A DNA stretch of 64,000 bases from Promethearchaeia archaeon (GTDB lineage: Archaea; Asgardarchaeota; Lokiarchaeia; Sigyniarchaeales; SOKP01): assembly GCA_029856145.1 (NCBI GenBank), contig JAHQWK010000016.1, positions 64,001 to 128,000 of the forward strand, written 5' to 3'. Position 1 is the first letter of the stretch. The number at the start of each line of letters is the position of its first letter. The position numbers and the translations under genes are program-made. Shown piece by piece: positions 12,233-16,850 of the stretch. Under the pieces are notes generated by a model. It did no database searches. It was not told the DNA's origin and saw nothing but the letters and a program-made list of their open reading frames with translations.

Positions 12233-13066
12233 ATGAAGAAATACGAGGAAATCACCGGTAGATATGCAATTTGGCGGGGAGTCATAACCGAGGGTTTTAG
12301 AAAGTGGCAAAGAGGGGAGAAAGTCTATCACAGAGAAAAAGAACGAATTTCTTTGTATGTATCTGATGACACTAAATCAAAGTGGTTAAAATATACAAAG
12401 AATAATGGAGATCTTACCATCTCAAAGCTTATTCGAGAGGCAGTCTCATATTTTATAGAAAGTAAATCAATAGAAACTGGGTATAGCTTATCAAAATTAA
12501 ATCCTCAAACAATTTCAAATATCTCTCATACATTAAAGGAGCCTTTAACTTCAATAAAGGGTTATTCACAGCTACTTCTTGAGAACTATAGAGAAAAATT
12601 GAATGATCAGGTTTTAGAGACAGTCAAAAATATTTTTGAACAGTCTATCCTACTTGAGAAGAAAATAATTAATATTTTAGATAACATAAAAGTAGAATCA
12701 GACTACGATGTGTTATTAATTGAGGATGATCTTGCAACCATTCGATTGATAACAAGTTATTTCGACAGTAAGGGATATGAATGTAAAGGTGTTGTAAGTG
12801 GTTCAAAAGGCTTGGAAGAATTAGGGAATACAATTCCAAAACTGATCTTGTTAGATATTATTTTGCCGGACCTAAGTGGATATGACATCTGTAAAACAAT
12901 TAAGTCAGATAAAGAATGGTCACATATTCCTTTATTTTTCTTAACCGCCATAGCTGGGAGCGAGGTCGAAAAAAACTTACCAGATACGAAAGCAGATGGG
13001 TATATATTAAAACCGTTTAATTTTTCTGACTTTGAAGTAATTTTTGATATTTTAAAGAAAAGCTAA
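12233..13066 (+). CDS. RHH-HisKA-receiver fusion regulator (paralog 1); frame open back to 12113
   Basis: RISLYVSDDTKSKW..TISKLIREAV (RHH); ISHTLKEPLTSIKG (H-box); IEDD/LLDIILPD/LTA/KPF (REC). Confidence 0.85.
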   Translation: MKKYEEITGRYAIWRGVITEGFRKWQRGEKVYHREKERISLYVSDDTKSKWLKYTKNNGDLTISKLIREAVSYFIESKSIETGYSLSKLNPQTISNISHTLKEPLTSIKGYSQLLLENYREKLNDQVLETVKNIFEQSILLEKKIINILDNIKVESDYDVLLIEDDLATIRLITSYFDSKGYECKGVVSGSKGLEELGNTIPKLILLDIILPDLSGYDICKTIKSDKEWSHIPLFFLTAIAGSEVEKNLPDTKADGYILKPFNFSDFEVIFDILKKS

Positions 13067-13348: not shown

Positions 13349-14239
13349 ATGACAGATGAGGAGATCGCTAACCTCGATCTGAACAGTAAAGAATTTAAGG
13401 AATTAACGAAAAAATATGAAGAGGGAACTGATAAATATGCAATTTGGCGTGGATCTATTACAGAAGGATTTAAAAAGTGGTTAAAAGGGGAAAAAATATA
13501 TGACAGAGATAAAGAAAGAATCTCATTATATGTTTCCGAAGAGACAAAACAGCAATGGCAAGATTTTAAAGAAAGAAAGGAATATTCGACTATCTCAGCT
13601 TTGATTCGAGAGAGTGTTGATTTTTATATTGAGCAAAAATCTGATCTACTTAGCGATAGATTACAAAGAATGGATGAAAAGACAATTTCTAATATTTCTC
13701 ATGCTTTAAAGGAACCACTCACCACAATAAAGGGATTTAGTCAACTCCTTCTGGAAAATTACGCAGATGAGTTGAATGAAGATGTATTGGTTACAATTAA
13801 AAATATCTTTGATCAAAGTTTACTTCTTGAAAATAAAATCATTAACATTTTAGATAATATCGCTACTGAAGAACCTCATCCTCAGTATGATATACTTCTG
13901 ATTGAAGACGATTTAGCAACTATACGTTTGCTTACGAGTTATTTCGAAAGTAAAGGCTATAAATGTAAGGGCGTCGTAAGTGGAACAAAAGGTATAGAAG
14001 AAATTAGGGGCGGGCTCCCTAAACTTATCCTATTAGATATCATCTTACCAGACATATCTGGCTATGAAATATGTAAAATGATTAAGGAGCATGAAAAATA
14101 TCAGGAAATTCCTGTCTACTTATTAACTGCAATACCTGGGAGTGAGGTGGAAAAAAAAATGGTTGATATTAAAGCCGATGGATATATCTTGAAACCTTTC
14201 GATTTTTCAGATTTTGAAGTAGTCTTCCGATATTTATAA
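13349..14239 (+). CDS. RHH-HisKA-receiver fusion regulator (paralog 2)
   Basis: RISLYVSEETKQQW..TISALIRESV; ISHALKEPLTTIKG; IEDD/LLDIILPD/LTA/KPF; GAGGAG SD directly upstream. Confidence 0.85.
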   Translation: MTDEEIANLDLNSKEFKELTKKYEEGTDKYAIWRGSITEGFKKWLKGEKIYDRDKERISLYVSEETKQQWQDFKERKEYSTISALIRESVDFYIEQKSDLLSDRLQRMDEKTISNISHALKEPLTTIKGFSQLLLENYADELNEDVLVTIKNIFDQSLLLENKIINILDNIATEEPHPQYDILLIEDDLATIRLLTSYFESKGYKCKGVVSGTKGIEEIRGGLPKLILLDIILPDISGYEICKMIKEHEKYQEIPVYLLTAIPGSEVEKKMVDIKADGYILKPFDFSDFEVVFRYL

Positions 14240-14292
14240 TTTATTTTAAGACAAATGTGGGATTGTCCCTAATTAATTTTTTTTAAAAATAG

Positions 14293-14396
14293 CGGGCTAT
14301 GAGGGAATCCCGTCAGCTGGGGTGTCTCCAGCTCATTTCGAACCCCCGACCCACCGGTTAAGAGCCGGTTGCGCTACCTGCCTGCGCCAATAGCCC
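14293..14396 (-). tRNA. tRNA-Lys(CUU) with 30-nt T-loop (59/60) intron at 14307-14336
   Basis: Acceptor GGGCTAT/ATAGCCC, anticodon arm ACCGG-CTCTTAA-CCGGT; removing the intron restores GGGGG-TTCGAAT-CCCTC and gives a 74-nt mature tRNA. Confidence 0.93.
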
Positions 14397-14430
14397 CTAA
14401 TTTAGTATTTTATATAATGTTTCTAAAAAG

Positions 14431-14565
14431 CGCAGACGGAGGGAATCCCGTCAGTTGAAGCATTTCCAACTGATCTCGAACCCCCGAGCGCTCGCGCGCA
14501 CCGGCTAACTTGTTTAAATATTAAAAATCTCAAGGCCGGCGTCTTACCAGCTAGGCTACGTCTGC
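14431..14565 (-). tRNA. tRNA-Ser(UGA) with two introns: 22 nt at 37/38 (14507-14528) and 30 nt at 59/60 (14445-14474)
   Basis: Acceptor GCAGACG/CGTCTGC, G73, variable arm GCGC-GCGA-GCGC, anticodon loop CTTGAGA after splicing; both introns form BHB motifs. Confidence 0.92.
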
Positions 14566-16681: not shown

Positions 16682-16764
16682 GCAATCGTTGCATAGCCTG
16701 GTAATGCGCCGGTCTGCTAAACCGGTGTCCAACGGACTCGTGGGTTCGAATCCCACCGATTGCG
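16682..16764 (+). tRNA. tRNA-Ser(GCU)
   Basis: GCAATCG/CGATTGC acceptor, CCGGT-CTGCTAA-ACCGG, variable arm GTCC-AAC-GGAC, GTGGG-TTCGAAT-CCCAC. Confidence 0.96.
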
Positions 16765-16773
16765 CTTAGTTTT

Positions 16774-16850
16774 GGGCCAGTGGTCTAGACTGGTATGACG
16801 TCTCGCTTACACCGAGAAAATCGGGAGTTCAAGTCTCTCCTGGCCCACCA
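16774..16850 (+). tRNA. tRNA-Val(UAC), CCA encoded
   Basis: GGGCCAG/CTGGCCC acceptor, TCTCG-CTTACAC-CGAGA, GGGAG-TTCAAGT-CTCTC, ACCA end. Confidence 0.96.

Follow-up and report, generated by a model that had tools for sequence, protein, structure and literature searches.

Related T-loop introns in adjacent tRNA-Ser(UGA) and tRNA-Lys(CUU) genes of an Asgard archaeon suggest copying between neighbours

The DNA analysed here, a stretch of 64,000 nucleotides referred to as the window, belongs to an Asgard MAG of 3.55 Mb (32 contigs, 29.9% GC, 97%-complete) that we designate G000; all other G and L numbers denote genomes and records of its relatives. The minus strand of the window holds two interrupted tRNA genes in tandem, tRNA-Ser(UGA) and tRNA-Lys(CUU), an order that is kept in 24/24 sampled genomes of the genus (Table 1). 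In both genes the T-loop is split between positions 59 and 60, so that it reads TTCGAA, 30 nt, T in Lys and TTCGAG, 30 nt, T in Ser. The acceptor, D and anticodon stems of Lys are perfect, and its T-stem is GGGGG/CCCTC. The D-stem of Ser contains a C11·A24 mismatch, which recurs in all Ser-UGA and Ser-CGA orthologs seen in the genus and is therefore regarded as a conserved oddity, not damage. An A/T box, whose role can only be conjectured, lies in the spacer ahead of Lys, and T-runs follow the Ser gene in orthologs as well. A scan for sigma-70 promoters was set aside as irrelevant, the host being archaeal.

The tRNA pair faces two convergent tandem paralogues with HisKA and response-regulator receiver domains, the downstream one of which stays adjacent to tRNA-Lys in relatives. 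The local genes encode these HisKA/receiver proteins, a JAB-domain protein, an acyltransferase and TFB, and no integrase was found among them. A second pair of genes in the window, tRNA-Ser(GCU) and tRNA-Val(UAC), represents the only two tRNAs there that standard tools picked up.

Table 1. Features of the tRNA-Ser(UGA)/tRNA-Lys(CUU) locus and further tRNA loci or calls in G000. Positions without a C label are those of the window.
Feature	Position	Strand	Remarks
tRNA-Ser(UGA) gene	14565..14431	minus	135 nt, two introns, no encoded CCA; parsed by hand
Ser exon 1, positions 1-37	14529..14565	minus	
Ser D-stem mismatch C11·A24	14542 and 14555	minus	D-stem GCCT/AGAC
Ser canonical 37/38 intron	14528..14507	minus	22 nt, AT-rich
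Ser exon 2, positions 38-59	14475..14506	minus	includes long variable arm and 5' T-stem
Ser T-loop intron, 59/60	14474..14445	minus	30 nt, ATCAGTTGGAAATGCTTCAACTGACGGGAT; family A
Ser exon 3, positions 60-73	14431..14444	minus	
Ser-Lys spacer	14397..14430	minus	34 nt, AT-rich; T5 run at its start
T5 run in spacer	14425-14429	minus	likely archaeal terminator of Ser, judged from sequence
tRNA-Lys(CUU) gene	14396..14293	minus	104 nt, one intron, no encoded CCA
Lys exon 1, positions 1-59	14337..14396	minus	
Lys T-loop intron, 59/60	14336..14307	minus	30 nt, ATGAGCTGGAGACACCCCAGCTGACGGGAT; family A
Lys exon 2, positions 60-73	14293..14306	minus	
T5 run directly 3' of Lys	14285..14289	minus	likely terminator, judged from sequence
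Tandem HisKA/receiver paralogues	12233-13066 and 13349-14239	plus	converge on the tRNA pair
tRNA-Ser(GCU), tRNA-Val(UAC)	16682-16850	plus	9 nt apart, intron-less
tRNA-Ser(GGA)	C8:2037-2166	minus	T-loop intron
tRNA-Trp(CCA)	C9:633878-634042	plus	T-loop intron
tRNA-Gly(GCC)	C22:60528-60628	minus	T-loop intron
Probable tRNA-Tyr(GUA)	C31:18937-19086	minus	T-loop intron
Long-intron ARAGORN -i call	C2:49762-50674		AT-rich, clearly false
Long-intron ARAGORN -i call	C11:16642-18441		probably false
Long-intron ARAGORN -i call	C30:3657-5215		probably false

All three introns of the pair present the strict 3-4-3 geometry of a bulge-helix-bulge (BHB) motif, hBHBh'. At both T-loop introns the outer helix h is the 5-bp T-stem GGGGG/CCCTC and the central helix H pairs TTCG (positions 54-57) with CGGG (intron nt 25-28) at 4/4 positions. 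The bulges are A58-N59-I1 (AAA in Lys, AGA in Ser) and I29-I30-T60 (ATT), and the inner helix h' has 7-8 pairs closing a 7-nt loop (7/8 pairs with one G·G mismatch in Lys, 8 bp in Ser). Hand checking and motif scoring thus reproduced the T-arms, helices and bulges described in an earlier note on this DNA, along with the common length and position of the two introns and the identity of their last 10 nt. The Ser 37/38 intron, which that note did not list, also forms a perfect strict BHB on hand checking (H = CTTG/CAAG, bulges AGA and TTA); it is present in every ortholog with variable sequence, and ARAGORN -i detected it once the T-loop intron had been removed. In RNAfold predictions for the isolated T-arm, a register-shifted 8-bp helix was favoured over the BHB by 4-6 kcal/mol. 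Since minimum-free-energy folding returns this shifted helix and not the BHB, the motif was scored directly.

Following removal of the introns in silico, ARAGORN returned a 74-nt tRNA-Lys(ctt) and an 83-nt tRNA-Ser(tga) with regular cloverleaves, whose T-arms are those of natural intron-less orthologs (TTCGAAT/CCCTC in Lys). The unspliced genes gave no match with default ARAGORN, ARAGORN -i or Rfam at the gathering threshold; at a lax E-value, unspliced Lys scored 19 bits with the Rfam tRNA model. The earlier suspicion that scanners may miss these genes therefore proved correct for ARAGORN and Rfam/Infernal, and the loss of essential tRNAs by both tools in these genomes matters for annotation and for completeness estimates. 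It is very probable that both T-loop introns are real, spliced introns. The host encodes two EndA paralogues with a tRNA_int_endo domain (PF01974, open frames of ~205 aa) and has one match to the RtcB ligase (PF01139). Gene number and length, on which the assignment is based, fit an (alpha-beta)2 type of EndA, the enzyme reported for most Asgard genomes (bioRxiv 10.64898/2026.10.13.758758). The pre-tRNAs are predicted to be cut by this two-paralogue EndA and joined by RtcB, whereby the Lys precursor would lose its 30-nt T-loop intron and the Ser precursor both its T-loop and its 37/38 intron.

Some tRNA introns have a function of their own, a known example being the box C/D guide intron of Haloferax tRNA-Trp, and a similar role was considered for the T-loop introns. 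This candidate was rejected: there is no C box (RUGAUGA), and 30 nt is too short. The sequence CTGA, which could stand for a D box (CUGA), occurs only in the introns of G000 and in the Ser intron of G083, and CTAA occurs in the remaining members of their family (family A, below).

To place the two introns among their relatives, we drew on a scan of 185,579 species genomes, which yielded 49 records with a Lys-CUU T-arm split by 15-45 nt, the inserts being nearly all 30 nt long. Within the class, 96 of 161 genomes contained the Lys T-arm pattern, with an intron in 45 and none in 51. By sequence, these Lys T-loop introns form several families whose hairpins differ considerably. A BHB criterion (H 4/4, h ≥3, h' ≥5/8) was passed by 39 of the 47 unique introns (32 at 59/60 and 7 at 58/59), versus 99 of 9400 interior shuffles (~1%). 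This difference is strong evidence, drawn from sequence comparison, that the class is likely spliced and under selection for the motif, as the earlier note had proposed with regard to structure. The exons are nearly invariant (90-100% identical to orthologs), and the introns and spacers diverge. In the best explanation, the T-loop intron of Lys-CUU is of old standing in these archaea and turns over fast. Introns also occur at other sites: in the variable region of Lys in G001, after position 38 of Lys in G024, and in the D-arm of Ser in G015, which is without the 37/38 intron. The Lys gene of record L052 has three introns.

The Ser-UGA T-loop intron was present in only 6 of the 161 class genomes: four of the genus (G000, G083, G001 and G092) and two of a second genus (G113 and G148). 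T-loop introns in Lys are roughly eightfold more common. The Ser and Lys introns of G000 are identical at 22/30 positions (73%). The hairpin changes quoted in the earlier note are present in the sequence: pair 6-20 changes from C-G in Lys to T-A in Ser, which is compensatory, pair 9-17 from G-C to G-T, and pair 3-23 from G·G to C-G. Chance matches between introns are common at 70% identity (bioRxiv 10.64898/2026.10.13.758758). The G000 pair alone is therefore unconvincing, and the case rests on the wider family.

That family was defined over the 23 free positions of the intron (nt 2-24), which lie outside the pairing with the exons. Across these, the G000 Ser intron matched five family-A Lys introns at 15-18 positions (15 for its own neighbour), and the best Lys intron outside family A at 10/23, the median over 42 Lys 30-mers being 4. 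Family A occurs in Lys in G000, G083, G096, G105, G109 and record L040, and in Ser in G000 and G083 only. A degenerate family-A pattern run across 135 genomes found five Lys and two Ser T-loops, all at 59/60, and nothing elsewhere, so that spread to many tRNAs and positions on the scale described for Thermoproteales was not seen; blastn-short, used for the genome-wide search that the earlier note had suggested, returned no more copies within G000. In the family alignment 94.9% of cells are paired, versus at most 62% when the alignment is slid, and two pairs are doubly changed; covariation is weak in this set of eight sequences, 33 of 500 shuffles reaching the same value. The G000 and G083 introns also have the loop motif GAAATGCT in common. 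The host tRNA bodies are not duplicates, the Ser gene being class II and the Lys gene class I, with the T-arm alone in common. With good confidence, then, we regard the Ser intron as a copy of a Lys-family intron. The wider occurrence of family A in Lys, together with the greater frequency of Lys T-loop introns, makes Lys-to-Ser the likely direction.

The pairing of related introns in these two neighbours recurs in other genomes. G083 (Loki_b32) has the same Ser/Lys pair, so that the copy is not private to G000; its Ser intron is identical to that of G000 at 26/30 positions and to its own Lys intron at 25/30, and the Lys introns of the two genomes agree at 23/30. In 4 of the 6 genomes with a Ser intron, that intron resembles the adjoining Lys intron. 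The Ser and Lys introns of G148 have an identity of 0.84 (rank 1 of 47) and those of G113 tie for rank 1; the family that these two genomes share is distinct from family A. The Ser intron of G092, where Lys is intron-less, matches family-B Lys introns of congeners at 14-16/23 positions, and no relative was identified for that of G001. The earlier claim of homologous introns spread between neighbouring, unrelated tRNAs is thus upheld at its core: the intron is widespread in Lys but rare in Ser, the Ser intron falls inside a Lys family, that family is limited to these two genes, and the neighbour pairing appears again with other families.

Two of these genomes retain possible traces of how copying took place. 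The Ser intron of G148 (L089) is chimeric: nt 1-18 resemble the Ser intron of G113 (L088) at 16/18 positions, and nt 10-31 are identical at 21/22 to the Lys intron of G148 itself. Six of the seven mismatches between the Ser and Lys introns of G148 fall inside a 7-nt window (P ~0.004, computed post hoc). In G092, the Ser gene has A57, a base found in only 1 of ~45 intron-less Ser-UGA genes of the genus and in all hosts of family-B Lys introns. Both arguments were formed after the fact and draw on relatives rather than on the window.

Considered as a whole, the probable reading is that both genes are functional and single-copy, and that the Ser intron arose by the copying of a Lys-family intron through short-patch ectopic gene conversion. 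An intron of the family would have been copied from Lys into the adjoining Ser gene by DNA-level recombination, conversion using the T-arm common to both genes, in which TCGGGGGTTCGA precedes the insertion point and TCCCTC follows it; this homology (12 and 6-7 nt) is short, a point against the proposal. Since both genes supply the same exon half of the BHB, the copy would have been spliceable from the start and could have persisted, its hairpin pairing being kept since then through compensatory change. The copying would predate the divergence of the G000 and G083 Ser introns, and did not necessarily occur in the direct line of G000. Similar sharing between Lys and Ser would have arisen with other intron families in other genomes. 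For the route by itself, our preference for gene conversion is slight, standing just above even odds, and it is scarcely firmer once copying is granted.

Other readings of the same data were weighed against this one. That the two genes are decaying pseudogenes with insertions, as their invisibility to standard scanners might suggest, is scarcely credible. The intact Lys-CUU and Ser-UGA copies elsewhere that the earlier note had associated with pseudogenes were not found in G000 (ARAGORN -i, Rfam and blastn-short were among the searches), and single-copy status for the anticodon combined with exons conserved beside diverging introns makes the pseudogene reading unlikely. The BHB is, moreover, kept across families, and splicing in silico gives perfect cloverleaves. 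Convergence, in which the likeness of the introns stems only from pairing with the same T-loop and from a 30-nt hairpin form, could draw on the fact that the last 6 nt are forced by TTCG pairing and the bulge, that 30 nt is typical of nearly all T-loop introns here, and that the background global identity among Lys introns reaches 0.73 at the 90th percentile. The same BHB is nevertheless satisfied by at least 7 other hairpin families, and the free-position matches of 15-18/23 were obtained with family A only, all other families reaching 10 or fewer; with GAAATGCT also shared with the G083 introns, this already disfavoured explanation is very improbable. The earlier note had offered reverse splicing next to gene conversion. 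In such an RNA-level route an excised, probably circularised Lys intron would be re-inserted into the Ser transcript by reversal of the endonuclease and ligase steps, reverse-transcribed and recombined into the gene. Circularisation is known for archaeal tRNA introns (PMC3326292), and the Ser target presents an exon half of the BHB identical to that of Lys. In G000 the insertion is also splice-site-precise: Ser keeps G59 next to A59 in Lys, so that no exon base was co-converted, which counts against conversion and is likewise expected from a splice-site-precise RNA route. Against it stand the lack of an RVT_1 reverse transcriptase gene among those found in the 97%-complete G000, the limitation of the family to two neighbours though other tRNAs share the T-arm, and the G148 chimera and the A57 of G092, which require breakpoints inside the intron or in an exon; a reverse-transcription signature is likewise lacking for Asgard intron gains (bioRxiv 10.64898/2026.10.13.758758). 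The RNA-level route is accordingly judged improbable, and of the two mechanisms in the earlier note it is DNA-level conversion that is favoured, on the strength of neighbour-only sharing, the chimera, A57 and the missing reverse transcriptase.

Where the copying took place is a separate matter. We built an rpoB DNA tree of 48 congeners, a single-gene tree chosen because protein identities of TFB and RpoB varied too little to resolve the order of the species. G000 grouped with G016, G100, G006, G010 and G097, and G083 fell in another clade with G096, G001, G092 and G093; forcing G000 and G083 together was worse by 159 lnL units (AU p 2e-40, for a pair named after the tree had been seen). The T-loop introns of G000 are identical to those of G083 at 26/30 (Ser) and 23/30 (Lys) positions, versus 15/30 for those of G006. 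The 37/38 intron and the spacer of G000 are closer to G006/G016 (18/22 and 26/34) than to G083 (14/22 and 25/39). On the same tree the Lys intron families required 17 changes (42 genomes) and the Ser intron 4, close relatives holding different Lys families or none, a scatter pointing to very rapid turnover or to passage from one species to another. With G000 and G083 apart on this tree, many losses would be needed to explain the pair by vertical descent, and lateral exchange is the alternative. Either loss and replacement have been very frequent, as conversion from intron-less paralogues would bring about, or T-arm patches have crossed species.

It follows that the pair may have been made elsewhere, with G000 receiving both T-arm and intron patches from a G083-like lineage through recombination with foreign DNA or the sorting of old alleles. 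The close match of the T-loop introns despite the rejected sisterhood, the G006- and G016-like spacer and 37/38 intron, and the 17 tree changes speak for this history, which we nonetheless consider unlikely, if a good deal less so than the RNA-level route. The stretch between the two introns (spacer and Lys anticodon stem) is not G083-like, so that two separate short patches would be needed; the tree comes from a single gene; and many losses by conversion from intron-less paralogues offer an alternative. In any case it concerns the place of the event and not its nature. Returning to gene conversion, a more general proposal can be made tentatively, at somewhat less than even odds: in this archaeal family, T-loop BHB introns would be gained, swapped and erased by short-patch conversion among tRNA genes with a T-arm in common, neighbours being the easiest partners, and the patches would perhaps pass between species.

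Introns of this type are known. The pre-tRNA-Cys of ARMAN-2 is cut at 59/60 in vitro, and the tRNA-Pro of ARMAN-2 has a strict BHB there (PMC3239211). With these and with the 59/60 introns of Thermoproteales, the introns described here share the T-loop position, and with ARMAN-2 tRNA-Pro the strict hBHBh' form. They differ from those of ARMAN-2 in their Asgard (Lokiarchaeia-type) lineage, in a two-paralogue EndA in place of the epsilon2 type, in a uniform 30-nt hairpin, and in that splicing is predicted here from sequence. The statement of the earlier note that non-canonical positions are described mainly in Thermoproteales did not hold, such positions being documented well beyond that group, in ARMAN-2 (PMC3239211) and in Asgard archaea (bioRxiv 10.64898/2026.10.13.758758).

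In PMC4090602 and PMC4033280, a 2010 study of 'intron transposition' in Thermoproteales is described as having found look-alike introns in different tRNAs and proposed a DNA-level process, with the mechanism stated to be unknown. In both cases a single genome has similar introns in tRNAs that differ in identity, and the target is BHB-compatible. The present case differs in being strictly local (adjacent genes, same position and T-arm), in its lower identity (73-84%), and in its indications of partial conversion tracts, from which a concrete mechanism can be suggested. A 2026 Asgard census reports heavily interrupted tRNA genes with many non-canonical introns, T-arm introns that are frequent and lie mostly at canonical BHBs, two EndA paralogues and repeated gains, with 'no general route of arrival'; it gives no general support to copying between tRNA genes (1.5% vs 0.6% shuffled at 80% identity), is centred on Atabeyarchaeia and Jordiarchaeia, and makes no mention of Lokiarchaeia, neighbours or gene conversion (bioRxiv 10.64898/2026.10.13.758758). 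Asgard hosts, T-arm introns, two EndA paralogues and repeated gains are features common to that census and our work, which adds a specific positive case of copying in another class. Protection of att sites by tRNA introns was hypothesised by Randau and Soll 2008, as cited in PMC4090602, and is the idea that the earlier note raised for T-arm introns. The introns described here do split the T-arm, which archaeal integrases make use of in tRNA genes; no integrase was found near the locus, and synteny of the downstream gene is kept in relatives.

What is new is a donor-recipient pair that is local and recurrent and gives hints of the mechanism. The entry of BHB introns into tRNA genes is an open question, for which the locus provides a small, clean natural experiment: donor and recipient lie 138 bp apart with identical T-arms, the rare recipient state has come about in at least three intron families, and a chimeric copy and a co-transferred exon base were each seen once. 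Together these features make gene conversion testable. If the general proposal above is true, archaeal tRNA introns would have a first concrete route of arrival at the DNA level, where reviews and the 2026 Asgard census see no known mechanism.

Beyond the Ser/Lys pair, a T-arm-specific scan identified at least 4 further tRNAs in G000 with T-loop introns of 29-32 nt (Ser-GGA, Trp-CCA, Gly-GCC and a probable Tyr-GUA; Table 1). These introns are unrelated to one another and to those of the pair. The T-arms of Ser-GGA and Trp-CCA are near-identical (GGGGGTTCAA...TCCCTC), and these genes, located elsewhere in G000, contain unrelated introns. The scan replaced a genome-wide tRNA census (GC-rich islands, strict BHB removal, ARAGORN) that gave ~14 tRNA regions and was too strict. 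For the whole of G000, ARAGORN -i returned 27 tRNA candidates and Rfam 34; several of the ARAGORN -i tRNAs with introns of 500-1700 nt are false, one of them having been checked, and the three such calls in Table 1 have introns of 800-1700 nt. MAGs with the same genus-level Lys gene have been labelled Promethearchaeota, Hermod-, Thor-, Hod- and Odinarchaeota, and two even Nanopelagicaceae bacterium and Methanosarcinales, which suggests that these labels are unreliable or that contigs have been mis-binned.
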